DNA of 64,000 bases from positions 631,459-695,458 of the forward strand of contig JAWAHN010000001.1 in assembly GCA_038889235.1 (NCBI GenBank). Reading direction: 5' to 3'. The notes under the pieces are model-generated. The model searched no databases and was not told the origin of the DNA. It saw only the letters and a list, made by a program, of their open reading frames with translations. The translations under genes were made by a program, and so were the position numbers. Shown piece by piece: positions 5,662 to 62,829 of the stretch. The DNA comes from Candidatus Jordarchaeales archaeon (GTDB lineage: Archaea > Asgardarchaeota > Jordiarchaeia > Jordiarchaeales > Freyrarchaeaceae). Position 1 is the stretch's first letter. Each line of letters opens with the position of its first letter.

Positions 5662-7008
5662 TTATGCCGTTCCTTCTCTCCACCCTCTGAGGTATGCCAT
5701 TTGTTCCTTCGTGAGTTGTTCTAACTCTATTCCCATGGCCTTGCACTTCAATTCCGCCACGGTCATGTCTATTTCCTTTGGTATGTCGAGAACCACGTTT
5801 CCTAACTTCTTAAGCTCGTCTCTGTGTTTAACAATCCATTCAACAGCTAAAGCTTGGTCGCTAAACGACATGTCCATAACAGAGCTGGGGTGTCCTTCAG
5901 CAGCGACAAGGTTTACTAGACGACCTTTACAGAGCAAGTATATTCTCCTTCCATCTTTTAGCCGATACTCTTCAACATTAGGCCTTATTTCTTCCTTGCT
6001 TACAGCCAGACTTTCTAGGTCCTTTAAGTTTATTTCGACGTCAAAGTGCCCTGCATTAGCAAGTATGGCGCCATCCTTCATTTTTTCGATGTGCTCCTTT
6101 CTTATAACGTCTTTGCAGCCAGTAGCCGTTATGAATATGTCCCCCACTTCTGCGGCTTTGTACATCGGCATCACGTCTATACCTTCAAGCGCAGCGGTAA
6201 GCGCTCTATGTGGGTTTATCTCTGTTACTATAACTCTCCTAGCGCCTAAACCTTTAGCCCGCAAAGCGATCCCGCGGCCGCAATGTCCGTATCCGGCAAC
6301 CACAACCACTTTTCCTGCTATTAGTTCAGAAGTCGCTCTCATTATTCCGTCGAGTGTTGACTGGCCAGTCCCCCACACGTTGTCAAATTCCCACTTGGTA
6401 GGGGTATCGTTCGTTGCAAGTATGGGGTACGGCAATTTCCCCTCTTCAGCCATGGCGCGGAGCCTTATTACTCCCGTAGTGGTTTCCTCGGCGCCACCCC
6501 AAACGTTACTCCACCAGTCGCCTCCTTCTCCCAGCACTTTCTTAACTATTTTTATTTCTTCTCCGCCTTCCTTGTGCTTTAGCTTGGCTATCGTAGAAAC
6601 TAAGTCAGCCCCGTCGTCCAGCGTCACGTTTGGCCGGGCTTTTATAACGTTCGCTATAGACCTATAGTAACCTTCAGTGTCCATGCCGTACCAGGCGTAA
6701 ACACCTATTCCATGCTTAACTAGGGCAGCCGCTACAGGGTCTTGTGTTGAGAGCGGGTTAGAAGCACAAAGGTAAACGGTTGCTCCTCCTGCTTGGAGTG
6801 TTCGAACTAAAACGGCAGTTTCTTTCGTTACGTGCAGACAAGCACCAACTACCACGTTTTTAAGTGGTTTTTCTTTCTCGAAACGCTCCCTTATCATTTT
6901 TAAGACTGGCATGTGGTCTTCTGCCCATCGAATGAGTTTTTCTCCCTGCGACGCGAGGCCTATGTCTTTTATCTCGTAATTTTTTCCAACCTGAGTCATC
7001 ACGTCCAC
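5662..7008 (-). CDS. ahcY: S-adenosyl-L-homocysteine hydrolase (adenosylhomocysteinase)
   Basis: 448 aa; NAD-binding GYGHCGRG motif, conserved N-terminus (YEIKDIGLASQGEKLIRWAEDHMPVL); possible ATG start at 6999. Confidence 0.9.
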   Translation of the reverse strand: MDVMTQVGKNYEIKDIGLASQGEKLIRWAEDHMPVLKMIRERFEKEKPLKNVVVGACLHVTKETAVLVRTLQAGGATVYLCASNPLSTQDPVAAALVKHGIGVYAWYGMDTEGYYRSIANVIKARPNVTLDDGADLVSTIAKLKHKEGGEEIKIVKKVLGEGGDWWSNVWGGAEETTTGVIRLRAMAEEGKLPYPILATNDTPTKWEFDNVWGTGQSTLDGIMRATSELIAGKVVVVAGYGHCGRGIALRAKGLGARRVIVTEINPHRALTAALEGIDVMPMYKAAEVGDIFITATGCKDVIRKEHIEKMKDGAILANAGHFDVEINLKDLESLAVSKEEIRPNVEEYRLKDGRRIYLLCKGRLVNLVAAEGHPSSVMDMSFSDQALAVEWIVKHRDELKKLGNVVLDIPKEIDMTVAELKCKAMGIELEQLTKEQMAYLRGWREGTA

Positions 7009-7049: not shown

Positions 7050-8741
7050 TTACGCGATTCTTCCCTCTTCTAGTGCTTTTAATTCGGCCTGTATCTCTTC
7101 TTCTGTGATCTTTCTGAATAATGGTTTCGGCTGCTTGATCAAATGTCCAGGTTTTATGTTGAATCTCTTCGCAGATTCCCAGTTTTGTAGCTTAGTGTTA
7201 AGCATCTCGAAAAGCTGCTCCATGGATGTGGGGATTACAGGGTAAAGGCAGGTTGCCGCCGAGTAGAGGAAGTTCACGCAAATGTAGAGCGTGGTTGCAG
7301 CATTTTTTTCTTCTCCTTTTTTCATGGCGTCCCATGGTGCTTTGGCTGTAAAATAGCTGTTTGCTTTTTTGAACGTCTCGACTATGCGCCGTATAACTTT
7401 TGAGAAGTCACACTTTTCATACTCTCTTTCTACTTCTTCGACCATTTGCATGAAAGTTGAGGTGAAGTCTTCGTCTTGTTCATCTGTCTCGCCTGGTTCT
7501 GGGACCCTCTTTTCGAACCATCTGGAAATGAATGACAAGACACGGTGGGTGAAGTTTCCTATGTTGTCCACCAGATCTCCGTTCACTTTGTTCATGAACT
7601 CGGCCCAGCTGAAGTCGTTGTCGCTAATGTTGTTGGCTACTTTTGAGGCTAAATAGAAGCGGATGTAATCCGCGGGGAACTTATCGAGGACGCGTTTGAG
7701 GGGGACGAACCACTTCCTGCTCTTACTCATTTTCCGTCCTTCGAGCGTAAGATAGCCATTTATAACATACTTCCCTGGGAGGGTATAACCTCCAACACCC
7801 ATTAGCATTGCAGGCCAGAAGAGGAGGTGGTGGTATATTATGTCTTTGCCTATGAAGTGAGTTATTAGACAGTCCCCCATCCAGTAGTCCTTCCAGTCCC
7901 GCCCGGTTTTTTTACTCCAGTTAACCGTCGAAGCGATGTAACCTATGGGGGCATCAAACCACACGTACACATATTGGTTGTCCTTGGCGTCCTCATAAGG
8001 TAACTTGAAACCCCAGTAGTCCTCTCTCGTTATATCCCAATCTTGTAATCCAGACTTGATCCATTGGACAACATAATTAACAACTTCCCTGGAGAGTTCA
8101 TCGCTGCTTTTAGATTCCATCCATTCGAGCAACCTTTGTGAAAAGGCACTCAGCTTGAATATGAAGTGTTCTTCAGTCCTGATAGACGGAGGAGAACCGC
8201 ACACAACACAACGCGGTTCAAGCATCATGCCGGGTTCTATCGTTCTTCCGCACAATTCACAAGCGTCGCCGTACTGGTCTTCTGCTCCACAGTACGGGCA
8301 CTTGCCTTTGATCATACGGTCGGGTAGGTACATTTTGTCTGTCTCACAGTAGAAAAGTCTAACTTCTTTCTTGTAGATGTACCCGTTTTTTCTCAATTTT
8401 AGCAGGAATTCTTCTGTTAGCTTCCTGTTTTCCTCACTGTGAGTTCTGTGATAGTTATCAAAGCTTATGCCAAGTTTCTCCAAATCCTCTATTTGGCGTT
8501 TTCTGTAGTATTCGACGTGTTCTAGAGGTGTGTGACCTGCCTCTCTAGCTGCAACCGATATGGGGGTTCCGTGCTCATCGCTTCCGCAAACAAAGACTAC
8601 ATCTAATCCCTTGATCCTACAAAAGCGGGTGAAAATGTCTGCCGGTATGTAAGTGCTAAAGGCGTGGCCGAGGTGAAGGTCGGAATTAGCATATGGTAGC
8701 GCTGCTGTAACCAGCACTCTGCGCAACTTAGATCCCTCCAA
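7050..8741 (-). CDS. metG: Methionyl-tRNA synthetase
   Basis: 563 aa; class I HLGH and KMSKS motifs, zinc knuckle CPYCG...CELCG; a likelier start is TTG at 8726 preceded by GGAGGG. Confidence 0.9.
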   Translation of the reverse strand: MEGSKLRRVLVTAALPYANSDLHLGHAFSTYIPADIFTRFCRIKGLDVVFVCGSDEHGTPISVAAREAGHTPLEHVEYYRKRQIEDLEKLGISFDNYHRTHSEENRKLTEEFLLKLRKNGYIYKKEVRLFYCETDKMYLPDRMIKGKCPYCGAEDQYGDACELCGRTIEPGMMLEPRCVVCGSPPSIRTEEHFIFKLSAFSQRLLEWMESKSSDELSREVVNYVVQWIKSGLQDWDITREDYWGFKLPYEDAKDNQYVYVWFDAPIGYIASTVNWSKKTGRDWKDYWMGDCLITHFIGKDIIYHHLLFWPAMLMGVGGYTLPGKYVINGYLTLEGRKMSKSRKWFVPLKRVLDKFPADYIRFYLASKVANNISDNDFSWAEFMNKVNGDLVDNIGNFTHRVLSFISRWFEKRVPEPGETDEQDEDFTSTFMQMVEEVEREYEKCDFSKVIRRIVETFKKANSYFTAKAPWDAMKKGEEKNAATTLYICVNFLYSAATCLYPVIPTSMEQLFEMLNTKLQNWESAKRFNIKPGHLIKQPKPLFRKITEEEIQAELKALEEGRIA

Positions 8742-17304: not shown

Positions 17305-17733
17305 TTATATGTCAAGAACGAAAACCAGGCGGACTTTGCCTTCTTTGACGTCGATCTCCATTTCGTGGTATGTCGCCGCTTTGACGTGTGTTTTTGACAC
17401 GTGTTTTTCGTGGTTAAATTTTTCTCCTTTGGCAGTTGCAACAAGTTTGTAGCCCCCGTCCTCCTTTGTTATCTTTTTTACTTTGAAATCTGAAAAGACA
17501 AGACGTTCAGAATCTGTTAGGTATATGAATTCTTCAAGCCAGTTATACAATAGGTTTTCCAAGTCGCTGCCCTCAACTTCTATCTTCTTTTCTACAACAG
17601 GGGTTACCTTAGAAATGTCCGTCATTAACTCGTAAAGTCCTCTTGCTGCCTCCTCGAAAGCCTCTTCAAGCGTTTTTCCCTCAGCCTCTATTTTAACATC
17701 TGCCGTGTGCTCGAGGAACCTGAATTGTCCCAT
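17305..17733 (-). CDS. Archease (RtcB tRNA ligase cofactor)
   Basis: Internal start MGQFRFLEHTADVKIEAEG, the archease N-terminal signature; GGAGGG precedes this ATG. Confidence 0.8.
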   Translation of the reverse strand: MGQFRFLEHTADVKIEAEGKTLEEAFEEAARGLYELMTDISKVTPVVEKKIEVEGSDLENLLYNWLEEFIYLTDSERLVFSDFKVKKITKEDGGYKLVATAKGEKFNHEKHVSKTHVKAATYHEMEIDVKEGKVRLVFVLDI

Positions 17734-17876
17734 GTTTTTCCCTCCACGCAAGAATTTTGACATAACTTAGCTCGTTATGAAGGAAAAACTTTCCCCCTAC
17801 GATGAGAGGAGGGGGCTAGGCATCAAGAAAAAGATCCCGGTGGTGTCCTTGATAATACTAAGTTTCAAAATAGGCG

Positions 17877-18407
17877 ATGGCGAGAAGACAATCCGAAAAA
17901 GTGTCGGAGGATTCCTGGTTGAAGTATGTTAAAGTGGTCTTTTTGGGGTTGCCCTCGGTTGGCAAGACGAGCATTATAACGCTTTTGAGTGAAAACAGAG
18001 TTGTTAGAAGCTACGATCCAACGATAGGCGTCGATTTTGGTTCAGTGTCCATCGGCGAGTGTGAGGTCTCATTGTGGGATCTTGCAGGACAAGAGAGGTT
18101 TCAATTTCTCTGGGATGACTTCATAAAGGGCGCGAAGATCATTTTCGCGGTTAGTGATTCAACGCCGAAGAATGTTTTGCAAACGAAAAAGATAATAGAT
18201 GAGATTAGAGGGAAAACTGATGCTCTTATAATAGGTATAGCTAACAAGCAAGACCTTCCGGGAGCTATGAAGCCAAGTCAAGTTGAGAGTATACTTAAGG
18301 TTCCAACTTACGGTATGGTCGCAATAGACCCTAGGAAGAGAGTTAAAATGTACAGTATTTTGAGGCAAGCTTTAGAGCAGACTGTTCTAGCTGTGGCGAG
18401 CAATTAG
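17877..18407 (+). CDS. Ras-superfamily small GTPase, Rab-like
   Basis: 176 aa; P-loop GLPSVGKTS, switch I TIGVDF, switch II WDLAGQERF, NKQD. Confidence 0.8.
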   Translation: MARRQSEKVSEDSWLKYVKVVFLGLPSVGKTSIITLLSENRVVRSYDPTIGVDFGSVSIGECEVSLWDLAGQERFQFLWDDFIKGAKIIFAVSDSTPKNVLQTKKIIDEIRGKTDALIIGIANKQDLPGAMKPSQVESILKVPTYGMVAIDPRKRVKMYSILRQALEQTVLAVASN

Positions 18408-18474
18408 CTGTCATCACTTCTCTCCGCGAAACTTTTTATGCTAACTTTGGCTGACATGGTTTTGGGGTCTGTAA

Positions 18475-18858: not shown

Positions 18859-19614
18859 ATGCCGTTTAGAGCGAAGTTCTCAGACGCGCGAACTTGGAAG
18901 AAGGTTATTGACGCTATAGAGGTGCTCGTAGACGAGGCTGTCTTTAGGGCAAACAAGGAGGCTTTGAAAGTTAGAGCCATGGATCCAAGCCACGTTGCTA
19001 TGGTGGATGTTTACCTGCCTGCAGCGATATTCGACGAATACGAGTGCAGTGGCGATGTGGCAATAGGCGTTAGTCTCGACGAGATGAGGAAAGTAATGCG
19101 TAGGGCTAGCTCAAATGACGAGCTAGAACTAGTCCTAGACGAGTCAGCAGGTAATTTGCGTGTGCACCTTAAGGGAGCTACCAGTAGAACTTTTAGACTT
19201 TCCCTTCTAGATATAGGAAGAGAGGAGCCGCCCACACCGTCAATTAAGTTCAACGTCGAAGCAAAACTGCTATCTGACGCATTGGTCCAGGCATTAAAGG
19301 ATGCCGAGCTTTTCAGTGAACACGTCCAGATCTCTGCGACGCCGGAAGGTGTGCGAATTACTGCCTCCGGGGATACTAGCGGAGTAGAAGTCAAAATAGA
19401 CAAAGGAAGCGAGGCGCTTTTAGAGCTGAATGTCACCGAGAGCGCTAGGGCAATATACGCCCTCAGCTACCTCTCAGACATGGTTAAAGCTGCTTCAGCA
19501 AGTGAGACAGTAACTGTCAGTTTCTCCACAGACATGCCTTTAAAGCTCGAGTTCAGAGTTCTCGGGGAAGGCAGAATAACCTACTGGCTTGCTCCAAGAA
19601 TAGAGGCAGAATGA
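18859..19614 (+). CDS. pcn: DNA polymerase sliding clamp PCNA
   Basis: 251 aa; ATG preceded by GGAGGGG; PCNA-like N-terminus (MPFRAKFSDARTWKKVIDAIEVLVDEA) and two-domain length. Confidence 0.85.
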   Translation: MPFRAKFSDARTWKKVIDAIEVLVDEAVFRANKEALKVRAMDPSHVAMVDVYLPAAIFDEYECSGDVAIGVSLDEMRKVMRRASSNDELELVLDESAGNLRVHLKGATSRTFRLSLLDIGREEPPTPSIKFNVEAKLLSDALVQALKDAELFSEHVQISATPEGVRITASGDTSGVEVKIDKGSEALLELNVTESARAIYALSYLSDMVKAASASETVTVSFSTDMPLKLEFRVLGEGRITYWLAPRIEAE

Positions 19615-19668: not shown

Positions 19669-20775
19669 ATGAGAGAGGAGCGGTCAGAAATCATTTCTCG
19701 CTACTTTATCGCCAAGTACCCATTCACCGTTGAAGCACAGGCTTGGCTTAGGGAGAGGAAGATTGACTTAGACTTCCTGGTTAAGGAGATGCCTGCCGTA
19801 TTAGTCAGGGCAAGAGACAGAGTGATAAAAGCTCTTGAAGAAGGAGTTGCACCGTCGATTTTAGATGACCCTGAAGCTGAATTCCTCTCGTTCCCTATAG
19901 CAAGAATGATTGTCGAAATAGTTGGAGACCCATTTTTACGCCACAGGTTCGCAGTAGCTGAGGCGAAAAGAGCTCAAGGCTTTTTCAAGGAAGAAGATGT
20001 GGAAACGTTAACTGTCATAGCTACACGGACCTTCGGGATCGACTGTCAGCCTGTCAAGAAAGATATCAGTGGAAGAGTGTATTCGTTCAAAATTCACTTC
20101 GCGGATTACTTAAGGTATGCCTCCGGCTTTCATGACCCTTACTGGAAGCTCGTTAACAGGGTTCTTTCTAAAGGATATGTCTTTCTCGCTAAAGATGATT
20201 TTACGAGAATACTAGCTGGTGCAGTTGAAAAAAGGCTGCTTGAGCCACGTGAGCCGCCTTTGAAGGTGCCCTCGGAGATCAAACAAATTGTCGACGAGGT
20301 TGTGTCCAAAGTTATGGCCAGACGGGAGAGATATGTACTGGAAGAAGTCGAGGGAGGAGAAGTAGTGGAGGAGGCGTTCCCTCCCTGTATATCAGCACTA
20401 ATTCTAGCTCTAAGGAAGAACCAGCCTCTGCCTCATAGCGCTAGGTTTACTCTGACCTCGTTCCTACTTAGCGTCGGGTACTCTGTTGACAGAATTATTT
20501 CTCTGTTCAGTGAGATACCAGACTTCAAGGAGGAAATAACGAGGTATCAAGTTGAGCACATTGCAGGAATAAGAAGCGGCACGAGGTACACGCCCCCGAA
20601 ATGCGAAACTATGAAAACCTACGGGTTATGCTTGTTTCATGAAAAATGCAGAAACATAAGGCACCCCTTGGAATACTATAGGAAATACAAGCGCCACCGT
20701 TCTAAGGAGGCTGTGAAACTTGATTCCGGAGGACAAGCGGGTGAGGAACGAAATATTCCTCAAGGGTCTCTTTAG
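19669..20775 (+). CDS. priL: DNA primase large subunit PriL
   Basis: 368 aa; conserved Fe-S domain with FPPC, HIAG, PPKCETMKTYGLC motifs; 3' end overlaps priS by 56 bp. Confidence 0.8.
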   Translation: MREERSEIISRYFIAKYPFTVEAQAWLRERKIDLDFLVKEMPAVLVRARDRVIKALEEGVAPSILDDPEAEFLSFPIARMIVEIVGDPFLRHRFAVAEAKRAQGFFKEEDVETLTVIATRTFGIDCQPVKKDISGRVYSFKIHFADYLRYASGFHDPYWKLVNRVLSKGYVFLAKDDFTRILAGAVEKRLLEPREPPLKVPSEIKQIVDEVVSKVMARRERYVLEEVEGGEVVEEAFPPCISALILALRKNQPLPHSARFTLTSFLLSVGYSVDRIISLFSEIPDFKEEITRYQVEHIAGIRSGTRYTPPKCETMKTYGLCLFHEKCRNIRHPLEYYRKYKRHRSKEAVKLDSGGQAGEERNIPQGSL

Positions 20776-21967
20776 GAAGTATTACCAGGAGAACAAGGTC
20801 AGTCCACCTCTTTCCATCGAGAAAAGGGAGTTTGGGTTCATGTTTTTTGGTTCACAAAACATGGTGCGGCACTTGTCCTTTACCAACGCTGAAAGTCTTC
20901 AGCAGTTCATGTTTTCCAGGGTACCGTCTAACGCATTCTACTCTGCAGCTTACTACTCGAAGCCCGACGCAGCGAAAATGGATGAGAAAGGATGGGAGGG
21001 GTGTGACCTCATATTTGACATTGACGCAGACCACCTTAGAACGCCTTGCAAGGAAACACATGACAAATGGGTTTGCCAGAACTGTGGAGAAAGTGGATTA
21101 GGAGGAAGACCTGAAAAGTGTCCGCGGTGCGGGGGACAAAACATAGAAGAGAGGACGTGGCTGTGCGAAACATGCTTAGAGACAGCAAAGAACGAACTGA
21201 TAAAACTCATAGAAGATTTTTTGATGGCTGACTTTGGAATTAGTGCGGACGAATTAAGAGTGGTTTTCTCGGGTCACAGAGGTTATCACGTTCACATAAC
21301 TTCACGGGTATTACTGGACTTGGACCAAAACGCGAGGCGCGAAATAATAGACTATATAAAAGGTGTAGGAATAGAACCATACTACCATGGGCTTATGGAG
21401 GTACGAGAAGGAAGAAGTAAAATCCTGAAGGGGCCACGTGTTAGCGAGGAAGGGTGGAGAGGAAGATTAGCTAGAGGAGTAATTAAAACAATATTATCAA
21501 TGAGCGAGGAAAGCATTCCACAGGATAGAAAAGTAAGGGCGGCTTTGCAAAAACTGCTCAAGGATAGAAGCCGGGTAGTCGCATCTTTGGGGGAAGGCAT
21601 ATGGGACCCTGTGAGGGGGGTCAGCTTAGACGCTTGGAAGTACGTAGTGAAGACTGCCATTGAGGAAGTTGGAGGGAAAGTTGACGAACCTGTAACTTCC
21701 GACGTTAGGAGATTAATAAGGCTCCCAACTTCTTTGCATGGAAAAACAGGATTTAAAGTATCTTTAGTCAAACTGGGAGAAATCTCCAATTTCGATCCAT
21801 TTAGGCATGCTTTAGCTTTTAAAGGAGAAGTTACCGTTCACGTGAATGAAGCTCCGAGATTCAGAATAGGGGAAGAAGAATTTGGACCATTTAAGGATGA
21901 AGACGTGGAACTCCCCCTCTCGGCGGCAGTTCTCTTACTGTGTAAAAGTGTTGCCTACTTGAAGTAG
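20720..21967 (+). CDS. priS: DNA primase small (catalytic) subunit PriS
   Basis: 415 aa; catalytic DLIFDIDADH motif, zinc knuckle CQNCG...CPRCG. Confidence 0.85.
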   Translation: MIPEDKRVRNEIFLKGLFRKYYQENKVSPPLSIEKREFGFMFFGSQNMVRHLSFTNAESLQQFMFSRVPSNAFYSAAYYSKPDAAKMDEKGWEGCDLIFDIDADHLRTPCKETHDKWVCQNCGESGLGGRPEKCPRCGGQNIEERTWLCETCLETAKNELIKLIEDFLMADFGISADELRVVFSGHRGYHVHITSRVLLDLDQNARREIIDYIKGVGIEPYYHGLMEVREGRSKILKGPRVSEEGWRGRLARGVIKTILSMSEESIPQDRKVRAALQKLLKDRSRVVASLGEGIWDPVRGVSLDAWKYVVKTAIEEVGGKVDEPVTSDVRRLIRLPTSLHGKTGFKVSLVKLGEISNFDPFRHALAFKGEVTVHVNEAPRFRIGEEEFGPFKDEDVELPLSAAVLLLCKSVAYLK

Positions 21968-21976
21968 GAGGGAGCT

Positions 21977-22513
21977 GTGGTGTACAAGGAGATACGCGAA
22001 GCGTGGCTTGCCGAACAAAAAGAGGGGGGCATTCGGACGTTGGACAGCGAGTTCTTCGAGAGGGCAGCAGGATATCTTAGACGCTTAGAAGCTTTAGAGG
22101 AAGAGAGTGAGCTGGTCAAGGTTAAAAGGGAAAGAGTACGGTACATGCTGATGGATCTTATCGAGCTACGATTAGAGAAGATGTTTTCGAGCATAATTAT
22201 TAGTACTCCAATAAATCCCGGGGCACTAACCCAGAAGGAAAGAGAGATCTATGGTGAGCTTCAAGGGTTATTTGAGACGAGAGAGAGCGAGGAAGAGTTG
22301 GGTGAGGAGGAATATGTATTGGTACGCATGCTAGTCGACTTACCAGAGATTGTTGGAGTAGATCTTCAAATCTATGGTCCATTCAAAGCAGAGGACATAG
22401 TAACGCTTCCCAGGGACAATGCGATTGCTCTCATAAGAAAGGGTGTGGCTGTTCCCATAATGGTAGACAGCAAGAGAAATTCCAAGGTGAGTGAGCTACC
22501 TACTCAAAGTTAA
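21977..22513 (+). CDS. GINS complex subunit (Gins15/Gins51-like)
   Basis: 178 aa; acidic coiled N-terminal half and C-terminal GPFKAEDIVTLPRDNAIALIRKGVA; position directly after priS is where archaeal gins15 is typically found. Confidence 0.55.
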   Translation: MVYKEIREAWLAEQKEGGIRTLDSEFFERAAGYLRRLEALEEESELVKVKRERVRYMLMDLIELRLEKMFSSIIISTPINPGALTQKEREIYGELQGLFETRESEEELGEEEYVLVRMLVDLPEIVGVDLQIYGPFKAEDIVTLPRDNAIALIRKGVAVPIMVDSKRNSKVSELPTQS

Positions 22514-35462: not shown

Positions 35463-36113
35463 TTATAAGTCTTGTTGCAGTTCACTTGCTCCTTTTGGTC
35501 TAAGAAGAATATAGGGTCCCATTCTAAGGCGGCTTGCTTCTTCTTCAGACATTTCTTCTACTTTAATTTTTTCTTGGTCTTGCGGTATTATCATTCCGTT
35601 TCCGAGAGGATCCTCTAGGATTATTGTGAATTTCAGGTGTCCGTCTATTGCTTTCTGGATGCTTTGTATTGCTTGCTGGCACTTTTGAGTCTCTTGGGGT
35701 GTTGTTGACCAGTTTTTCAACGTTTGTGCAATGTCCAGAAAACGGTGTAAGACACCTTCCACGTTTGTTATGAATGGCTGTGCTGCTGGTCCCGGTTCTA
35801 GGATTGCACCGAGTTCTGGGATTCTTATGGTGCTTGTAACGGAACGTATTACTTTGGATGAGAGATCTGATGGTTCCCTAACTTGTAGAATGTACCTCAT
35901 GGGTTTTCCAAATCTCATGCTCACCACGTCACTTACTCTTAGATTGCAGTTACTGCATTTAACGGTTACTAGCAACACTTCGTGGAAAAACGGTACATCT
36001 ACATGCACTTGAGTCGTCTTTGCTTTACTACCGCAGGATGGGCATGTAATTTCCTCTTCTACTGCTTCTTCAGATGCGTGATTCGAGGTATTCGATGAGT
36101 TTTTCGGCTTCAT
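35463..36113 (-). CDS. ZPR1-type zinc finger protein
   Basis: 216 aa; CPSCG...CSNCN C4 zinc finger followed by a ZPR1-like beta domain. Confidence 0.65.
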   Translation of the reverse strand: MKPKNSSNTSNHASEEAVEEEITCPSCGSKAKTTQVHVDVPFFHEVLLVTVKCSNCNLRVSDVVSMRFGKPMRYILQVREPSDLSSKVIRSVTSTIRIPELGAILEPGPAAQPFITNVEGVLHRFLDIAQTLKNWSTTPQETQKCQQAIQSIQKAIDGHLKFTIILEDPLGNGMIIPQDQEKIKVEEMSEEEASRLRMGPYILLRPKGASELQQDL

Positions 36114-37773
36114 CCTCTGGGCTCGCCTCCTTGAATGAGTAAACTATAAGCGTAGTTTTACCAGTCGAAGGGTTAAATATAGCCTTAGCCGTTAGAACTA
36201 ACTCTTTGCCTTCCAGGAAGGAGGCTCTCGTTTTTAGTAAAGGTGAGATGTCTCCCTCTTTTCTCATGAACTCGTATGCTTCTTTCGCGGTTACCCCTAA
36301 AAGCTTTTCAGCTTCTTTACCAAAGAAAATAGCCTTCACTACACTTGTTCCATCATCAATCAACACGTGGGCGGCAAGGAGTAGTTTGGGTTCAACTGTT
36401 TTACAGGTACTGCACAGTCTTTCGGAGACTAATCTCTTGCTACAAATTGGGCATATTTCGTAAACGATTCTCTTTCGCATAAGGCGTATTATCGTCCCTC
36501 TAACTTCCACGAATTCACCGTCTTCCAACTGGGAGAGGAACTTACGCGATGGAAGTTTCTTTGGGGGGGCTTGTTCAAGCGGTTCTTCCAATGGTATAAG
36601 CTCGACTTTTGAAAAGCGTCCTATGTGAACTTCCACCTTCCCCTCTAACCCTATTTTAGTATAGCCACCCTTTATCTTCAGCGTATCACCTATCTCCGCG
36701 TTAGCGACGATTTCAGCTTGCTCCCCCCACGCAACCACTCTCACTTTCCCCGTGTCATCTGCTATTACGAGAGAAGACATTACCCCTACAGATCCATCTA
36801 TTCTAGTAAATTCCTTCGTGCTTGGTAACTCGACAACTTTACCCTCTACGTCTACCGCTAACATTCCTGGTTCCAAGTCGTTTATTTTTGCCAGTTTCCC
36901 TTTCTCGGACTCTTTGCCTGGGATGATGGTTACCCGCGCAAGTCTCCCGGCGTGGATTTCCACGTCTCCCTGAAGACCAAGCTTAGTGTATCCTCCTTCT
37001 ATCCTCAATATGTCTCCTTCCTTGACTGTGTCTACGACATCAGCATTCTCATCCCAGAAAACCGCTCTCACACTTCCAGTTTCGTCAGAAAGTATGATGG
37101 ATTTTCTTTTTCCCTCTCCAAGCTCTCTGCTAAACACGGTTGTTGGATAAACTCTTTGAACAACGGCCTCCACGTCTACATCCCACATTTCAGGTAGAAG
37201 GTCGCCTAGCCTAAACAACCTTTTCTCTGTCAATGGGTATTCTCTTTCATCAACGTCGCCCGGTTCAATGTCTAGAAAGCCGCCTTTCCCTAAGTGGACC
37301 TCTAACTCCCCCCTTAGCCCCTCCCGAATATACCCCTTAACAACGCGCACTATCATGCCTTCCTTTATAGCTCCTTTCTCCACGAGACTAACGTGGTCCC
37401 CCCACAACACTACGCGAATGTCGCCCGTTATGTCACTTATGACTATGCTGGCAACCTTACCTTGTACGCCTCTTTTTTCGAAAACTCTTACTGGGTGAAT
37501 GCGTTTCACTCTTCCCGTGATGGTAACATTTCGCATATCGGGTTTCAAGTCCCTCACATATATCTTAACCGGTTTATATTCGTCTATTTCGGAAAGGTCG
37601 ACCCCGAGGTCTCTTGCGACGAGATGTAGAGCACCTTCATCGCTGATAAGGTCTCCCATCGCTCGCTTTTTCCTTTCAATGAGGTTCTGGAGCTCTGTTC
37701 TAGATACACCAGCCTTCTCGACCACGAACCTTACTTTCTCTTCCAAACTCAAAGAACACACCTGACACCGCAT
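36070..37773 (-). CDS. rpa: Replication protein A (RPA) with multiple OB folds and a C4 zinc ribbon
   Basis: 567 aa; repeated OB-fold blocks (GxVxxI..., KIKGGYTKIGLEGKVEVH repeated with variation) and CPICSKR...CSTCK zinc ribbon. Confidence 0.75.
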   Translation of the reverse strand: MRCQVCSLSLEEKVRFVVEKAGVSRTELQNLIERKKRAMGDLISDEGALHLVARDLGVDLSEIDEYKPVKIYVRDLKPDMRNVTITGRVKRIHPVRVFEKRGVQGKVASIVISDITGDIRVVLWGDHVSLVEKGAIKEGMIVRVVKGYIREGLRGELEVHLGKGGFLDIEPGDVDEREYPLTEKRLFRLGDLLPEMWDVDVEAVVQRVYPTTVFSRELGEGKRKSIILSDETGSVRAVFWDENADVVDTVKEGDILRIEGGYTKLGLQGDVEIHAGRLARVTIIPGKESEKGKLAKINDLEPGMLAVDVEGKVVELPSTKEFTRIDGSVGVMSSLVIADDTGKVRVVAWGEQAEIVANAEIGDTLKIKGGYTKIGLEGKVEVHIGRFSKVELIPLEEPLEQAPPKKLPSRKFLSQLEDGEFVEVRGTIIRLMRKRIVYEICPICSKRLVSERLCSTCKTVEPKLLLAAHVLIDDGTSVVKAIFFGKEAEKLLGVTAKEAYEFMRKEGDISPLLKTRASFLEGKELVLTAKAIFNPSTGKTTLIVYSFKEASPEDEAEKLIEYLESRI

Positions 37774-41954: not shown

Positions 41955-43478
41955 TTATTCGGATATTCTACCTAAAAGCATACCCTCAACTCTAACTGGG
42001 ATAAGGGAGTAAGCGAGCTCTAAGGCTTTGGAAAGCCTGTGTTCACTCCCAGAGTAAATCTCCAAGAGCGTATCTCCCTTAGACACCTTATAACCTCTTT
42101 TAAACCTTAGAACAACGCCTGCACCTTTATCCGCCGGAGCTCCAGCAGCCCTAGCTATAAGTTTCACAGCTTCATTATCGACCTCAACGACATACCCGCC
42201 ACTTTCCGCCTTGACCGCCGCAGTATAGTTACCGACAGGGATTTCCTCCGGTTTAATATTAGGATCACCGCCTTGTGCAGCGATTATTTCCCTCATTTTC
42301 GAAAGCGCCCTACCATTCTCAAGAATGCTTTTAGCTACAGAGTAACCTTGTCCTACCCCGGCTTTGCCTCCCATTTCCAGGAGGATCCCTGCTAAAGATG
42401 TCGCTTTTTCGATTAAGCTCATGGGACCACTTCCCATAAGTGCTTCTAGCGCCTCTTTCGCCTCTAGAGAGGGGCCGACAGTATAGCCGACGGGCTGCCC
42501 TCCATAAGTGATCCCGCACTGGATCTTTATGCCTAGCTTTTTACCTATTTTTATGACTCTAGATGCTAGTTCTTCTGCTTCGTTCATGCTTTGTACCTTG
42601 CACCCCTTTCCCACCGGTATATCTAAAACCATGTTGTTCACGCCCACAGCGAGTTTCTTGGCTAGAATGCTTGCTATCATTTGAGGAGTCGGATCGACCA
42701 TTAATGGATGCTCTACTTTGATTATTATGTCGTCGGCTGGCGCTATGTTTAAGCCACCCCCCCACACTATGGCGCCTTTCACGTGTTCAACGATTTCTTT
42801 AAACTCGTCGATGGTGAAGCACACTGGAGCCAGAACTTCCATCGTGTCTGCCGTCCCGCTCGGACTTGTGATAGCCTTACTGCTGGTCTTGGGAATCAGG
42901 AGGCCTGAGGCGGCCACTATGGGTACTACTAGCAAACTTACTTTGTTCCCGGGAACGCCGCCGATAGAGTGTTTGTCGTAAGTTTCTTCGTTAAAACGCA
43001 ATTTTTCCCCGCTCTCCGCCATAGAAATGGTTAGAGCTTCTATTTCTCGGTCACTCATCCCGTTAAAGTATTGCGCCAAAATAAATGCCGCTATTTCGAT
43101 CGGGCTTAGCTCTCCTTTAACTATGCTTTGGACTATAATGGAGATTTCATCACGGGATAATTCTTCCCCCCGCATTTTCTTCCTTACATGTTCAAGCGCA
43201 GGAGTGGAGGGTGCTGTGTCTAAGATAATGGATTCACCGTCAGACAGGTTAATTAGCTTGCTTAAACGTTTAGGGATGCCTATCTCTCCCCTCCCCACCA
43301 TAGAATCGGAGAGGGCTACGTTAACCGTTAACTCACGCCCATCGGCGATAAGCTTAACCCTGTCTCCCACTTCAGCGTGAATTTCACTAGCGTCATGAAC
43401 GTTCATAACTATTGTCGCAGATTCGAAATCGATGTCTACGATGCGCGTCTCGAACTCTTTCAAATATGCAACCTCCAC
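41955..43478 (-). CDS. AMP phosphorylase (thymidine phosphorylase family, archaeal long form)
   Basis: 507 aa; N-terminal extension plus pyrimidine-nucleoside phosphorylase core (HSIGGVPGNKVS, TSSKAITSPSGTADTME). Confidence 0.75.
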   Translation of the reverse strand: MEVAYLKEFETRIVDIDFESATIVMNVHDASEIHAEVGDRVKLIADGRELTVNVALSDSMVGRGEIGIPKRLSKLINLSDGESIILDTAPSTPALEHVRKKMRGEELSRDEISIIVQSIVKGELSPIEIAAFILAQYFNGMSDREIEALTISMAESGEKLRFNEETYDKHSIGGVPGNKVSLLVVPIVAASGLLIPKTSSKAITSPSGTADTMEVLAPVCFTIDEFKEIVEHVKGAIVWGGGLNIAPADDIIIKVEHPLMVDPTPQMIASILAKKLAVGVNNMVLDIPVGKGCKVQSMNEAEELASRVIKIGKKLGIKIQCGITYGGQPVGYTVGPSLEAKEALEALMGSGPMSLIEKATSLAGILLEMGGKAGVGQGYSVAKSILENGRALSKMREIIAAQGGDPNIKPEEIPVGNYTAAVKAESGGYVVEVDNEAVKLIARAAGAPADKGAGVVLRFKRGYKVSKGDTLLEIYSGSEHRLSKALELAYSLIPVRVEGMLLGRISE

Positions 43479-43577
43479 GTATTAGCTAGCTTCTTATGGA
43501 AAACCAATTTTTTGGGGTATTTTGATAAGGTATTTATCAGTGCAAAGAAAAAGTTTTCCATTGGGGGTATATTCAGC

Positions 43578-45365
43578 ATGCTGTTCTCTAAAATAGCAGA
43601 TTTTTATGAGAAAATAGAGGCTACGACAAAACGGTTGGAGATGATAGACCTACTTGTTAACCTGTTCCTAGAGACGCCAAAAGAGATAATTGACAAGGTA
43701 GTTTACCTGACGACGGGGAGAATTTACCCGATGTTTGTTCCAATAGAGCTTGGTATTTCTGAAAAGTTGGCCATGCGAAGCATCGCTATGATTGCTGGAG
43801 TGAGTATTAAGGATGTTGAAAACACCTTTAAAGAGGTTGGTGACATAGGCCTTGTTGCCGAAATATTCACGAAAAAGAAGAAGCAAGCCTCCCTATTCCG
43901 GACGCCTTTAACAGTCGAGGTGGTTTATGAAACACTAGATAAGATAGCGAAGGAAAGTGGGGAGGGGTCGGTAGAAGCCAAAATAAGACATCTTTCGAAG
44001 CTGCTACTTGACGGTACACCTAAAGAAGCCAAGTATATTGCGAGGATGGTTGTAGGAAAGCTCCGCCTTGGGATAGCAGATTATACAATTCTTGACGCGT
44101 TGGCCGTGGCTTTCACAGGGTCTAGAGAAAACAGACCCATCCTTGAGAGGGCTTACAACATCACATCTGACTTAGGACTAATAGCTAAGGTGGTTGCAAC
44201 AGAGGGGCTTAACTCTGTTAAAAACTTCAAGATCACCGTTGGAAGACCTATAAGGATGATGCTTGCTCAAAGAGCGACATCTCCCGAAGAAATTCTTGAG
44301 CGCATGGGTGGCCGTTGCTCAGCCGAATATAAACTTGACGGGGAACGAATGCAAATACACAAGGACGGAAGTAGAGTGGAAATATTTTCTAGGAGACTTG
44401 AGAACATAACGTACCAGTACCCAGACGTAGTTAAACTTGTCATAGAAAACCTGAAAGCAGAGAGAGCGATAGTTGAAGGAGAATGCGTGGCCATAAATCC
44501 TGATACCGGGGAAATGCTTCCCTTCCAGCAATTGATGAGAAGGAAAAGAGTGTACGGCATAGAGGAAGCCGTAGAGAAGTACCCTGCTATGATCTATCTT
44601 TTCGACGCGCTTTTGGTAGAAGATGAAGATTTAACGGATAAACCCTACCCTGAACGCAGAAAGAGACTTGCGGAAATAGTTCGAGAAAACGAGCGTATAA
44701 AGTTAGTTAGAGCAGAGCTGCTCGACAGCGTGGAAGCCATAGAGAAATTTTTTGACGCTGCAGTCGAGGAAGGATGCGAAGGTATAATGGCGAAATCCAT
44801 CCAATCCGACTCCATATATGAGGCTGGAAGTAGAGGATACAAGTGGCTCAAGTTCAAACGAGAGTACAAGACAGAGATGACCGACACTATAGATGCAGTT
44901 ATAGTTGGAGCGTTTATGGGTAAAGGCAAACGGGCAGGATCCTATGGAGCGCTGCTCGTCGCGGTTTACGACGAGGATTCAGACATGTTCAAAACCATCT
45001 GCAAAGTTGGTACAGGCTTTAGTGATGAAGATTTAGAAAGACTGCCGGAGATTCTTAGGCCTTACCAGATACCACACAAACACCCGAGAGTAGATTCAAA
45101 GCTAAAGGCAGACGTATGGTTCACTCCAGCCAAAGTTATCGAGATTATTGGGGCTGAATTAACAATAAGCCAAGTTCATACATGTGCCTTGGGATACGCT
45201 AAGAAAGACAGCGGGATAGCAGTTAGGTTCCCAAGATTTACTGGTAGGTGGAGGGATGACAAGGGACCAGAAGAAGCTACAACTGTTAAAGAAGTAATCG
45301 AGATGTACGAACAACAGAAAAAAGTGAAGGTGGCTGAAACAGTAGAAGAAGACACGGCTAAGTAA
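43578..45365 (+). CDS. lig: ATP-dependent DNA ligase
   Basis: Adenylation domain (KxDG context: EYKLDGER), OB domain; conserved N-terminus MLFSKIADFYEKIEATTKRLE begins at ATG 43578; the track start 43377 is an upstream extension overlapping the divergent gene. Confidence 0.9.
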   Translation: MLFSKIADFYEKIEATTKRLEMIDLLVNLFLETPKEIIDKVVYLTTGRIYPMFVPIELGISEKLAMRSIAMIAGVSIKDVENTFKEVGDIGLVAEIFTKKKKQASLFRTPLTVEVVYETLDKIAKESGEGSVEAKIRHLSKLLLDGTPKEAKYIARMVVGKLRLGIADYTILDALAVAFTGSRENRPILERAYNITSDLGLIAKVVATEGLNSVKNFKITVGRPIRMMLAQRATSPEEILERMGGRCSAEYKLDGERMQIHKDGSRVEIFSRRLENITYQYPDVVKLVIENLKAERAIVEGECVAINPDTGEMLPFQQLMRRKRVYGIEEAVEKYPAMIYLFDALLVEDEDLTDKPYPERRKRLAEIVRENERIKLVRAELLDSVEAIEKFFDAAVEEGCEGIMAKSIQSDSIYEAGSRGYKWLKFKREYKTEMTDTIDAVIVGAFMGKGKRAGSYGALLVAVYDEDSDMFKTICKVGTGFSDEDLERLPEILRPYQIPHKHPRVDSKLKADVWFTPAKVIEIIGAELTISQVHTCALGYAKKDSGIAVRFPRFTGRWRDDKGPEEATTVKEVIEMYEQQKKVKVAETVEEDTAK

Positions 45366-45477: not shown

Positions 45478-45882
45478 TTGTTAAAATTGTCTGTCGAGCA
45501 AATAATTTCCGTCATAAATGAGCTTCTTTCAACAAACGAAAACATAACTGCAGCCGCAGTTATCACAAATGACGGGCGTATAATATACCAGACAAACAAC
45601 TGGGACGTTAGTGTTGACGCGCCGAGTCTAATTGCTTCTTGGAGGGAAAAGGCGCCAGCCATATCGGTTCAGGGTATAAAGTACTCTGTTCTTCAAACAA
45701 CTGAGGAGAGACTCGTTGCGACAAACGTTAGCGGACTCGGACATATAATACTTGCAACAATACAGAGACGCGGCTTTCTAATGGTTTACGTGACACCTCA
45801 AGGGGATGCTGGTGGGAGCTACGTGGACGTCAGTCGGGCAGCAATGAAGCTCGCTCCAATTTTGCAAGCGATGGGTTACTGA
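45478..45882 (+). CDS. Roadblock/LC7-domain protein (MglB-like)
   Basis: 134 aa; alpha-beta pattern (AAAVITNDGRIIYQ...KYSVLQTTEERLVATNVSGLGHIILAT) characteristic of Roadblock/LC7. Confidence 0.65.
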   Translation: MLKLSVEQIISVINELLSTNENITAAAVITNDGRIIYQTNNWDVSVDAPSLIASWREKAPAISVQGIKYSVLQTTEERLVATNVSGLGHIILATIQRRGFLMVYVTPQGDAGGSYVDVSRAAMKLAPILQAMGY

Positions 45883-46694: not shown

Positions 46695-47636
46695 GTGTCT
46701 GTTATTTATAAGGTTGATCAGAGAGAATTCATTCAGGCGGTTGGAGGCTCAATGGAGGAGGACCTAAGGAATGTTATAGAAAGGGTGATCGGAGAAAGTG
46801 TTCAAAGAAGCATAGAACCATTTATACGCGCTCTTTTGAAGAGCATAAAGATAATCAGAGATGAAGTCGCTTCGATAGGAGTGGAGCTGGAGACGCGATC
46901 CAAGGACCTTTTGAGCCAATTAAACGGATTATCGAACCTGCTTCGGACAATTTACGAGCATGTGGAAAGAATAGAGAAGACGCAGGGTGAAGCGGAGCAA
47001 CGGCTACTTATAACTCCCCCCTCTGAGCAAAGAAATGTAGAGAGTCTTGTAGAAAGCAAAGTTAGAAGCTTGATTGAACCTCTAGGTAAAACTCTTCAGA
47101 AGATCGTGGATCAACAAATTACGCTGATAAATACCATCGAGCAAATTGTCGGAAAAATGGAGAGCATCGAAAGGAGCATGTTAGAACTTAAGACGAGTGC
47201 ACCTAAAATCCCAATTCAGCTGGGTTCAGAGGTGGATGAGGAAGAGAGGGCAGAAACAACTTCAGACGTTTTTAAAAGTGAAGTTTTCTCTAAATTAGAA
47301 GGTGCAGTTAAGACGCTTCTGGAAAAAACCGAGGAAGCAGAAAAGGTCAAAGAGACGGAGGAAGCAGAAGGGGGACCAGAATTTGAAGAACATTTAACAG
47401 AAACCGAAAAGCTAGAGCTTCAATCCGCTTCAAGAGAAGCCGCTGGTAGCGAGGAATTAACTATTGACAAATTACAGGAGAGGGTGGCAGAAATAGATCG
47501 GGAAATAACTGACTTAACTTTTGATAGAATGAGAGGGCTTCTAAGTGAAGAAGAATATCAAGAGAAAAAGGAGACATTAATAAAGGAAAAGGAGATTTTG
47601 AAAAAGAAAATCGAGGAGCTGACTCTTAAGATGTAA
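46695..47636 (+). CDS. Coiled-coil protein, function unknown
   Basis: 313 aa; extended predicted coiled-coil and acidic segments; first gene of a three-gene co-directional unit. Confidence 0.5.
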   Translation: MSVIYKVDQREFIQAVGGSMEEDLRNVIERVIGESVQRSIEPFIRALLKSIKIIRDEVASIGVELETRSKDLLSQLNGLSNLLRTIYEHVERIEKTQGEAEQRLLITPPSEQRNVESLVESKVRSLIEPLGKTLQKIVDQQITLINTIEQIVGKMESIERSMLELKTSAPKIPIQLGSEVDEEERAETTSDVFKSEVFSKLEGAVKTLLEKTEEAEKVKETEEAEGGPEFEEHLTETEKLELQSASREAAGSEELTIDKLQERVAEIDREITDLTFDRMRGLLSEEEYQEKKETLIKEKEILKKKIEELTLKM

Positions 47637-47679: not shown

Positions 47680-47985
47680 TTGGAAAAGACTGTGGATATA
47701 TGGGAATATTACCCAACCTATTCCGTCGATAAGAGCGGTAAAAAAGTGTTGATTATACGGGCTCTTACTTCCTTAAGCGATCTCAGCAAATTCGATATTC
47801 AAAATTATGAACAAATCAAGAAGTTGTGGTTTTCGGTTCTTTTAAGCATCCCTCTTCTAAAGAAGAAAAATTTTGACGACTCCTTACTCGAGGTGAAGAT
47901 TGAGGGGGAAACTGTTGAAGTTCGTGTAACAATCCCTCAAGATTATATTGAAGATGGTTCGACTCTTGGGGGAGAAAAGAGTTGA
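47680..47985 (+). CDS. Small hypothetical protein
   Basis: 101 aa; sits between two genes of the same unit and overlaps the next start by 4 bp. Confidence 0.4.
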   Translation: MEKTVDIWEYYPTYSVDKSGKKVLIIRALTSLSDLSKFDIQNYEQIKKLWFSVLLSIPLLKKKNFDDSLLEVKIEGETVEVRVTIPQDYIEDGSTLGGEKS

Positions 47986-50439: not shown

Positions 50440-51723
50440 CTAGAAAATTCTGGCCTCCAAATCCATTACTACCTCTTGGAAGGCTCGGTATAACACGTCT
50501 AAAAAAGAGGCCAATACTCTTCCTATCTTGTCTTTTAGTGGAGCCTTTTCGGGATAACCTAAGTCGTAAAGTGGTTTGTTAAGAAGTGCTTCCAATCCTA
50601 CAGGTATAGATGCTTTCGCCATAAGCGATAAGTTAGAAAGGACTCTCACACCGTGCTTTTCTAGGTATTTTTCTGGTTCGAGAAGGCTCTCTCTTTTGAG
50701 GTCATAAATCCGTTTTATCGTTGAATCAAGGAGAAGCTGTAGCTTTCGGAGCTCATCTGTAATATCGCTACTTAGGATGCTGCCATGTTCACTTAAGAAG
50801 CGATCAATTTCGGAAGAAATAGAGAGGATAGGACGCTGCCAAAGTATGTTTAAAAGCTTGTCAAACACCACCATATTTTTCCTGCTGCCAGTTTTTTCTT
50901 TGCTGATCCTCGCTTTCAGATCTCTAATCTTCTTATCTAGGGAAATTATCATACTTGAAATACTTTCTAGGTCCATTTTAAACCCGCTTTTAAGTTCCTC
51001 GTGTTCTATGAGATAGAACCTGTGTATTTCTTGTTCAAGAATGAAACCCATTTTCTCCGAGAAGTTTCTCACTCTGTGCAACAAAAAATCTAGGAATATG
51101 TTTAAATAAAGCTTCCTTAGAAGACCCGCTAACCTCTCCCATATCTCCTTAAACATTACTATCCTTTCCTTTTTCAAGAGGATCAAAGCGTGATCTCCGG
51201 GTTTTAAGTAAAAACAATAGTCTTTGAGCGCCTCTTTAAGACTGTTTTTTTCCCCCAACTTGTTTATGAAGATGGATGGATAACCGTGAGCAGCCGTGTT
51301 GACGTAGTAGTAAAGCCGTTTACCTTCATTCGTGGGGTAGCTAAAAACTATAATGCGCTCCAAATCTCCTGGATGGTGGGCTTTTCCGGGAGCTATAGTG
51401 AAACCCTTACTGTACGACAGCATTACGTAGATTGAATACCTTTCTTCCCCCTCAGTTAGTCCTGGAAACCTTAACAGGAAACCTAATTTTTCTAATACGC
51501 TTCTTTTATCTTTAGCCCATTCAGATGCTAATAAGTAGAAGCTACGCTTCTCTACATCTCCAACTATAACTCTGAAGAGCCCTAAAGTATCTCGTTTCTC
51601 GACATATTCATGTAATTTGTCAAAAAGCTTGCTTAACTCTCTCATGCTTCTTTTAAGCACAAATTCACGACTTTTCTCTTCATATATCGCAACTCTTTTC
51701 GGGAGGTAAACTTCGACTTCCAA
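50440..51723 (-). CDS. Hypothetical protein (427 aa)
   Basis: Long uninterrupted ORF; no family recognised. Confidence 0.5.
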   Translation of the reverse strand: MEVEVYLPKRVAIYEEKSREFVLKRSMRELSKLFDKLHEYVEKRDTLGLFRVIVGDVEKRSFYLLASEWAKDKRSVLEKLGFLLRFPGLTEGEERYSIYVMLSYSKGFTIAPGKAHHPGDLERIIVFSYPTNEGKRLYYYVNTAAHGYPSIFINKLGEKNSLKEALKDYCFYLKPGDHALILLKKERIVMFKEIWERLAGLLRKLYLNIFLDFLLHRVRNFSEKMGFILEQEIHRFYLIEHEELKSGFKMDLESISSMIISLDKKIRDLKARISKEKTGSRKNMVVFDKLLNILWQRPILSISSEIDRFLSEHGSILSSDITDELRKLQLLLDSTIKRIYDLKRESLLEPEKYLEKHGVRVLSNLSLMAKASIPVGLEALLNKPLYDLGYPEKAPLKDKIGRVLASFLDVLYRAFQEVVMDLEARIF

Positions 51724-62481: not shown

Positions 62482-62829
62482 ATGATAAAGTGGGAGACTC
62501 CAAGTGATGAAGAGGCACTAAGAGAGGTCGAGACGCTTAAGAAGTTCGTGAAAGGTGACTATGTGAAAATAGCAATACTAGAGCAGCTTATCAAGGGTGG
62601 TTGGTGTACTTTAAGCGAGTTGTGTAGAGCGGCGAAGGTGTACGATAGGTATGTTGGACAGGTAAGGGTAGCAACCATTTTGCAATACCTAGAAAGCATA
62701 ACTAGGGGGCTTCTAGAGAGGGATGAAGGAGATTTTTGCGTGAGGTGGAGGATTAAGCCTGAAAGGAAAAAGATAATTGAAAAATGGATTGAAGAAATCA
62801 AATCCGCACCTTACCGTAAAAGCTTCTGA
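62482..62829 (+). CDS. Small winged-helix DNA-binding protein
   Basis: 115 aa; KIAILEQLIKGGWCTLSELCRAAKVYDRYVGQVRVATILQYLES wHTH-like segment. Confidence 0.45.
   Translation: MIKWETPSDEEALREVETLKKFVKGDYVKIAILEQLIKGGWCTLSELCRAAKVYDRYVGQVRVATILQYLESITRGLLERDEGDFCVRWRIKPERKKIIEKWIEEIKSAPYRKSF

Follow-up and report, generated by a model that had tools for sequence, protein, structure and literature searches.

A predicted ArfL-family small GTPase encoded beside RPA14 and replisome genes in a Jordarchaeales genome

Genes at the locus

The stretch of DNA analyzed here comprises 64,000 nucleotides of a Candidatus Jordarchaeales genome (GenBank assembly GCA_038889235.1, contig JAWAHN010000001.1, positions 631,459 to 695,458) and is referred to in full as the window. 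It encodes a small GTPase immediately upstream of genes for a predicted RPA14 subunit of replication protein A, PCNA, both primase subunits and a GINS subunit (Table 1). A preliminary description, made from the DNA alone, had called the GTPase Rab-like and placed it between archease and the PCNA/primase cluster. The archease gene does lie upstream, but the 117-residue RPA14 product, which went unmentioned, is encoded between the GTPase gene and that of PCNA. Based on the analyses presented below, the GTPase is very probably a member of ArfL, a family confined to Asgard archaea. The protein is unusual only in its position beside rpa14 and replisome genes, which is also the sole clue to a function of ArfL.

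The open reading frame (ORF) at 17877..18407 on the forward strand translates to 176 amino acids and includes the four motifs previously described (GLPSVGKTS, TIGVDF, WDLAGQERF and NKQD), confirming that both are real. An alignment of the upstream DNA of five Jordarchaeia loci and the window indicates that the true start is TTG 17919-17921 instead of ATG 17877, for a predicted product of 162 residues. The TTG aligns with the ATG of a distant ortholog (locus L004), while ATG 17877 is not conserved and would add 14 non-conserved, strongly hydrophilic residues. Orthologs are 161-162 residues long with the N-terminus MK(Y/H)xKV, and the Ca. Jordarchaeales record GCA_038821275.1 annotates the gene as 162 residues. 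The Shine-Dalgarno-like motif ahead of the TTG is kept as GGAGGA/GGAGGT/GAGGAC at orthologous loci.

Further upstream lies the 19-nt element TAATACTAAGTTTCAAAAT, whose conservation marks it as a probable promoter or regulatory site for the GTPase gene. In the same alignment, 16 of its 19 positions are invariant, including at L004, where the upstream gene is different. Exact copies are present at L013, L021, L093, L094 and L173-175. The sole other near-match in the window has three mismatches (7182-7200, reverse strand) and falls within the 3'-terminal part of the MetRS gene, ahead of the one for AdoHcy hydrolase. A replication regulon defined by this second copy was considered and rejected, as the copy is unrelated to replication genes. 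On the other side of the GTPase gene, the 67-nt spacer ahead of rpa14 contains the T5/TATA-like tract GAAACTTTTTAT (CTTTTTAT at 18432..18439). From its composition, this tract could be a TATA/BRE-like promoter of rpa14, an oligo-T terminator of the GTPase gene, or both.

Classification of the GTPase

The matches of the protein to small GTPase families are far beyond chance. It is recognized by the Pfam models Arf (75.8 bits, 3.6e-21), Roc (63.4 bits, 3e-17) and Ras (59.9 bits, 2.9e-16), as well as by TIGR00231 (62.4 bits, 4e-17), and is thus the full Ras-superfamily GTPase that the preliminary description took it to be. The same description held such proteins to be uncommon in archaea except where a lineage is rich in eukaryotic signature proteins, which agrees with the origin of the window in Jordarchaeales, an Asgard lineage. 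Because small GTPases are abundant in Asgard genomes, the presence of one is expected rather than odd.

Asgard small GTPases are divided into the groups ArfR, ArfL, RasL, RagGtr, MglA1, MglA2-5 and Rup3 (Vargova et al., bioRxiv 10.1101/2024.02.28.582541). We built a hidden Markov model (HMM) from 12 domains labelled ArfL in Table S3 of that study, which derive from Hel- and Lokiarchaea only and include no jordarchaeial sequence. The window GTPase scores 172.7 bits against this model, compared with 74.1 bits for Arf and ArfR combined, 58.2 bits for Ras/Rab, 39.5 bits for RagGtr and 33.8 bits for MglA. In a distance-based neighbor-joining (NJ) tree, the labelled ArfL sequences and representatives of the family form a split recovered in 200 of 200 bootstrap replicates, with the window GTPase nested inside. 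The archaeal references in this tree were taken from the Vargova et al. table, and the eukaryotic ones are unverified. No sister group of ArfL is clearly supported: ArfL joins the Ras-like references in 33 of the 200 replicates, Arf in one and RagGtr in three. The tree does place the protein in a separate clade from MglA, in line with its low MglA score, and the protein is not of the MglA type.

The family carries the hallmarks VTDSTPxNVLxTK, IANKQD(LPGA), YGxxAI[DN]P and, after switch II, FxFLW. Table S3 gives the ArfL label to proteins with these hallmarks, including the Helarchaeal NVM28297.1, and the founding Lokiarchaeum proteins KKK40160.1 (Lokiarch_53730) and KKK44706.1 (Vargova et al.). 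Of these, NVM28297.1 is an obvious ortholog of the Helarchaeal proteins compared here. ArfL has been described as Asgard-only and without direct kinship to eukaryotic Arf (Vargova et al.; Zhu et al., PMC11914678), and no statement on its function was found in the searchable literature.

The distribution of the window GTPase family has the same Asgard-only range. A total of 236 relatives were detected in GTDB species genomes; the best 80 of the 236 are all from Asgard metagenome-assembled genomes, some of them mislabelled, and all named homologs are from Asgard archaea. A search for viral relatives found none. Jordarchaeia, alias Frey(r)archaeota, supply the closest homologs (65-98% identity), with remoter ones in Baldr-, Sif/Borr-, Hel-, Thor-, Hermod-, Odin-, Loki- and Hodarchaeia. 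ArfL itself was reportedly described by Klinger et al. in 2016 as an 'Arf-like' Asgard branch of the Ras superfamily. While the G3 motif of the window protein is DLAGQ where that of some ArfLs is DxGGQ, nothing excludes its membership. On these sequence comparisons, it is an ordinary predicted member of a known family, within a subgroup of short stand-alone ArfLs.

The Rab-like reading, which would make the protein a member of RasL, draws on several lines of evidence. IGVDF and WDLAGQERF match the switch motifs of Rab proteins such as Rab6 and Rab1, and Rab6 is the top match in a single-sequence search of the PDB (67 bits, 1.7e-17), though this search is ambiguous, with Arf6 at 61 bits and GerdArfR1 at 50 bits. 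In addition, a first NJ tree put the family nearer to Ras-like references with 71% support. This tree used eukaryotic references and no archaeal ones; it was judged too weak and was superseded by the labelled tree, in which the corresponding split falls to the value given above. When a profile of 25 family members was searched against the PDB, the top 60 matches were all Arf-family chains, headed by the crystallised Asgard protein GerdArfR1 (8OUN), with no Rab among them. The Ras/Rab HMM score is also low, the Rab-looking residues are variable within the family, the RabF3-F5 motifs are unmatched, and the interswitch is of Arf length, four residues shorter than in Rab. The C-terminal cysteine needed for prenylation is absent, as the preliminary description had correctly noted. 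Vargova et al. likewise found no Asgard sequences sister to Rab. A Rab-like identity is therefore highly improbable.

Predicted structure and mode of action

The conservation pattern is that of an active GTPase. Among 73 aligned family sequences, the P-loop lysine K16, T35 of switch I, G57-Q58 of switch II and N109-K-Q-D112 are invariant, and P34, D54, F61, W65, D80, G115 and A135 are among the residues that are nearly so. As K16, T35, G57-Q58, N109-D112 and A135 are conserved and present in the window protein, its nucleotide-binding and catalytic machinery is complete. Within the switch motifs, only the threonine of switch I and the Gly-Gln of switch II are invariant; the residues of IGVDF vary among relatives, some of which carry DxGGQ at G3. 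IGVDF and DLAGQ are thus best read from the alignment as lineage features, not family traits.

An AlphaFold2 model of the protein has a confident GTPase fold (pLDDT 92.8, pTM 0.89) that begins at strand beta1. In Foldseek searches, the GTP form of HodArfR1 ranks first (TM 0.87), followed by GerdArfR1 (0.84-0.86). Arf and Arl proteins give values of 0.76-0.84 (most 0.80-0.84) and Rab and Ras proteins 0.74-0.85, a comparison that leans mildly towards Arf but does not discriminate it from Rab. The single model resembles GTP forms.

These structural matches raise the alternative of a true Arf-family (ArfR) protein, recruited to membranes by GTP through the interswitch toggle. Likeness to HodArfR1 (8OUK), GerdArfR1 (8OUN), ARF1, ARF6 and ARL2 extends to the best Pfam match, the second-best HMM score, the first-ranked chains of the profile search and the closest structures (TM 0.85-0.87). 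Between the switch I threonine and the switch II glutamine the distance is 24 residues, as in ARF1, compared with 28 in RAB1A (both comparison sequences are unverified). NKQDLPGAM and the tryptophan after switch II also resemble ARF6 and ARL2, not Rab. There is also a published label: HDO80421.1 (P0005), which is 81% identical to the window GTPase, and HDO80042.1 are tagged as ArfR in Table S1 of Vargova et al. We rejected this tag for HDO80421.1 in view of the tree-based ArfL label that Table S3 gives to its clear relatives and of the HMM comparison, in which HDO80421.1 itself scores 173.1 bits against ArfL. The tag is probably a labelling inconsistency with Table S3.

Several features separate the window protein from this group. 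The Arf family, including ArfR, has G1 GLDxxGKT and G3 DxGGQ (Zhu et al., PMC11914678), while the window protein has GLPSVGKT, without the aspartate, and DLAGQ, with alanine for glycine. Only nine residues precede the P-loop glycine, compared with 23 in ARF1 (unverified sequence), and the 162-residue protein has neither an N-terminal amphipathic helix nor Gly2. Coupled with the separate clade, the single replicate joining ArfL to Arf and the much higher ArfL score, these differences make an ArfR identity very unlikely. In its sequence, the GTPase combines Arf-like with Ras-like traits, the mosaic to be expected of an ArfL.

The protein ends in ...TVLAVASN, with no C-terminal cysteine, and its only cysteine is residue 48. 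Because it lacks this cysteine, as well as the N-terminal helix and Gly2 of Arf proteins, it is probably soluble. These features make a soluble, canonical GTP/GDP switch a likely description of the protein.

Conserved gene order of ArfL and RPA14

The gene downstream is predicted to encode RPA14/RPA3. In a phmmer search of the PDB, its product matches Pyrococcus abyssi RPA14 (8C5Y_C, 8AAJ_C) with E=4.2e-11 over residues 17-114, a region that spans the whole OB domain and the C-terminal helix. Its orthologs exceed the Pfam thresholds of Rep_fac-A_3 (gathering score) and Ten1_2, and an identical (100%) Ca. Jordarchaeales protein, P0148, carries an OB-fold annotation. The match is to the heterotrimeric RPA of Thermococcales (P. 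abyssi RPA41/32/14; 8AAJ, 8C5Y), but the gene organization differs: the window rpa14 is away from the gene for the RPA1-type large subunit and beside those for PCNA and ArfL. In Pyrococcus, the three RPA genes are clustered. No gene of the window could be assigned to RPA32; the one beside RPA1 was considered for this role and rejected, as it encodes ZPR1. Given this and the separation of rpa14 from RPA1, the three RPA subunit genes are dispersed here.

To survey gene order, we inspected the loci of the best 80 of the 236 ArfL relatives in GTDB species genomes, using HMM searches of their ORFs. All Jordarchaeia orthologs (65-88% identity) have the block ArfL-RPA14-PCNA-PriL-PriS-GINS, as does L037 (42%). 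It is shared by the orthologs of 81% and 66% identity, the latter from a clade with a wholly different upstream flank. In Helarchaeales, where one relative is 48% identical, the order is PolD-DP1 > ArfL > RPA14, and in Borr/Sifarchaeia RPA14 and ArfL are paired convergently. There are thus three linked architectures: ArfL>RPA14>PCNA..., DP1>ArfL>RPA14 and RPA14> <ArfL. RPA14 lies within 400 bp of ArfL in 12 of the 80 species-level loci (L013-L021, L025, L031, L037). At L026 and L027 the contig ends just after DP1-ArfL, at L035 RPA14 and PCNA are 2-3 kb from ArfL, and at three Lokiarchaeal loci PriS-GINS is about 5.5 kb away. Among the 80 loci, no comparable linkage was found for Thor, Hermod and Odin paralogs, for the Jord paralog or for the 282-residue forms.

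The reverse scan of loci started from RPA14. A single-sequence search with the window RPA14 had returned only two proteins. Of 80 RPA14 loci from JGI metagenomes, 52 were evaluable, with 700 bp or more of flanking sequence on either side. PCNA adjoins RPA14 in 39 of these, ArfL in 11 and neither in nine. The RPA14-PCNA pair (L093-L172) is either co-directional (RPA14>PCNA) or has RPA14 divergent from a PCNA-PriL-PriS-GINS block, and looks like a deeply conserved Asgard arrangement. RPA14-PCNA is the deep unit, to which ArfL stayed attached, next to RPA14, in several classes. The linked ArfLs of Hel, Borr/Sif and L037 have as their best cross-lineage BLAST matches one another or linked Jord proteins, ahead of paralogs in their own genomes. 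For the window GTPase, the best non-Jord match is an unlinked Baldr protein (184 bits), followed by linked Borr/Sif (169 bits) and Hel (157 bits) proteins.

This linkage appears to be unreported within the literature that could be searched: we found no report of it, and a paper on the Asgard replisome (PMC12680538) mentions no GTPase. Taken as a whole, we consider the best explanation to be a soluble ArfL switch functionally tied to RPA or replication, and hold this overall account to be somewhat more probable than its failure. Considered separately, the functional tie to RPA or replication is suggested by gene order and is tentative, with the balance somewhat against it. A stronger version, in which the RPA14-paired ArfL subgroup would be a dedicated two-gene module that acts as a GTP-controlled regulator of Asgard RPA or replisome assembly, is unlikely on present comparisons.

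A number of observations weigh against a functional tie. Most RPA14 loci lack an adjoining ArfL (41 of 52), and 66 of 103 ArfL genes are not linked to RPA14. The linked ArfLs are not monophyletic in the NJ tree (0/200), being interspersed with the Jord paralog and with unlinked genes of Thor and Baldr. The closest non-Jord ortholog, from Baldrarchaeia (57% identity), is unlinked to RPA14. Because of the T5/TATA-like tract in the spacer and the GTPase gene's own conserved upstream element, the two genes of the window may also be separate transcription units. The linkage could instead be ancestral synteny that is eroding inside an island of housekeeping genes of great stability. In archaea, replication genes reportedly cluster with housekeeping genes of unrelated function (a finding attributed to Berthon et al., 2008).

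These observations lead to the main alternative, that the function of ArfL is unrelated to replication and its adjacency to rpa14 and pcna is inherited gene order in a slowly rearranging island. The GTPase would then act elsewhere, for example with Roadblock or longin partners in cytoskeletal, membrane or signalling processes, as other small GTPases of Asgard archaea would; the fusion of ArfL paralogs to longin domains and the surroundings of the Baldr ortholog, both described below, favor this. The adjacency nevertheless persists in three architectures and between classes that have diverged to 42-52% identity, with the other flanks rearranged in the meantime. By a rough inference, the chance of an ArfL gene flanking a given gene is below 1% per genome (about 6-10 ArfL in about 3,500 genes). 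We regard this alternative as doubtful, though it carries appreciable weight.

As a separate observation, RPA14 proteins encoded beside ArfL share R74 (100%), G70, F76, L104, V108 and a longer N-terminus, while unlinked ones mostly have asparagine at position 74. These differences are confounded with lineage and were dropped as evidence.

Candidate partners and possible function

In Ca. Baldrarchaeum yapensis (L022, 6221-7894), the GTPase ortholog has a Roadblock/LC7 gene (6221-6601, 49 bits) 417 nt ahead of it, with a divergent PF0610-like gene standing between them. The ortholog is followed, without a gap, by a gene for a 131-residue protein of no assigned function that ends in nine arginines. 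Some ArfL paralogs carry a longin domain fused at the N-terminus; for one such fusion, the full-length model has low overall confidence (pLDDT 63.7), and only its N-terminal domain was used. By analogy with the MglA-MglB, Rag-Ragulator and SRbeta-SRX modules, the longin-fused paralogs and the Robl_LC7 gene near the Baldr ortholog suggest that ArfL may share the regulatory logic of small GTPases paired with longin/Roadblock modules. The window differs from MglA-MglB-type systems in that no longin or Roadblock gene was found among its small ORFs, and its GTPase belongs outside MglA.

The preliminary description had proposed stimulation of the GTPase by a Roadblock protein encoded at 45478. The product of that gene is instead profilin, as it matches solved Asgard profilins (5ZZA, 5YED, 5ZZB and 7PBH) with E-values down to 9e-24 (5ZZA_P). 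No Roadblock homolog was found in the window by phmmer with the Baldr Roadblock protein, and Pfam searches of ten small window ORFs detected neither Roadblock nor longin domains.

In the mechanism that we tentatively prefer if the GTPase is tied to replication, its GTP form would bind RPA14, the RPA trimerisation core or another part of the replisome. This binding would gate the assembly or turnover of RPA or the replisome. A longin/Roadblock-type partner, with its gene at another place in the genome, would stimulate GTP hydrolysis.

Asgard archaea have very large sets of small GTPases, which are commonly interpreted as forerunners of membrane trafficking in eukaryotes, and ArfL is one of the major Asgard-only groups. 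If the linkage reflects function, part of this GTPase expansion served genome replication, not endomembranes. ArfL would then be a Ras-superfamily switch that acts on DNA replication, not on membranes or the cytoskeleton, and this would be the first function for the family. The linkage also names a directly testable partner, namely RPA14 or the RPA trimer. If, on the other hand, the gene order was simply inherited, the protein is no more than an ordinary small GTPase of Asgard archaea.

Other features of the window

The features discussed here are summarized in Table 1, together with further genes of the window.

Table 1. Coordinates of genes, motifs and sequence elements in the window.
Feature	Position	Strand	Evidence or remark
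Archease	17305..17763	-	
19-nt upstream element TAATACTAAGTTTCAAAAT	17853..17871	+	Conserved upstream of ArfL gene across Jordarchaeia clades
Shine-Dalgarno-like GGAGGA	17906..17911	+	Read from sequence; 7 nt 5' of TTG start
Predicted ArfL-family small GTPase gene, 162 residues	17919..18407	+	Pfam/TIGR matches, ArfL HMM, NJ tree, AlphaFold2 model
GTPase P-loop GLPSVGKT	17946-17969	+	
GTPase switch I TIGVDF	18021-18038	+	
GTPase WDLAGQ (switch II)	18075-18092	+	
GTPase NKQD	18243-18254	+	
GTPase G5 Ala135	18321-18323	+	
CTTTTTAT, after GAAA, within 67-nt GTPase-rpa14 spacer	18432..18439	+	Read from sequence
Predicted RPA14 (RPA3-type), single-OB subunit of replication protein A, 117 residues	18475..18828	+	phmmer against PDB; Pfam on orthologs
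PCNA	18859..19614	+	Pfam PCNA_N, PCNA_C
Primase large subunit PriL	19669..20775	+	Pfam DNA_primase_lrg
Primase small subunit PriS	20720..21967	+	Pfam DNA_primase_S
GINS51 subunit	21977..22513	+	Pfam Gins51_C
ZPR1 zinc-finger/jelly-roll protein, after RPA1-type gene	35463-36113	-	
RPA1-type large subunit	36070..37773	-	Three OB folds and Rep_fac-A_C
ATP-dependent DNA ligase, directly ahead of profilin gene	43377-45365		
Profilin	45478-45882	+	Pfam Profilin 24.9 bits; solved Asgard profilins

Pfam searches with E-value limits of 0.001 to 0.01 gave no match for four other ORFs of 101-427 residues (46695-47636 on the forward strand, 50440-51723 on the reverse strand, and 47680-47985 and 62482-62829 on the forward strand). 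The forward-strand gene at 58452-62378 encodes a protein of 1308 residues, with a TrmB-type winged helix-turn-helix at its N-terminus and, behind it, about 1200 residues that are repetitive and helical or coiled-coil in character, with sub-threshold Apolipoprotein-like matches.

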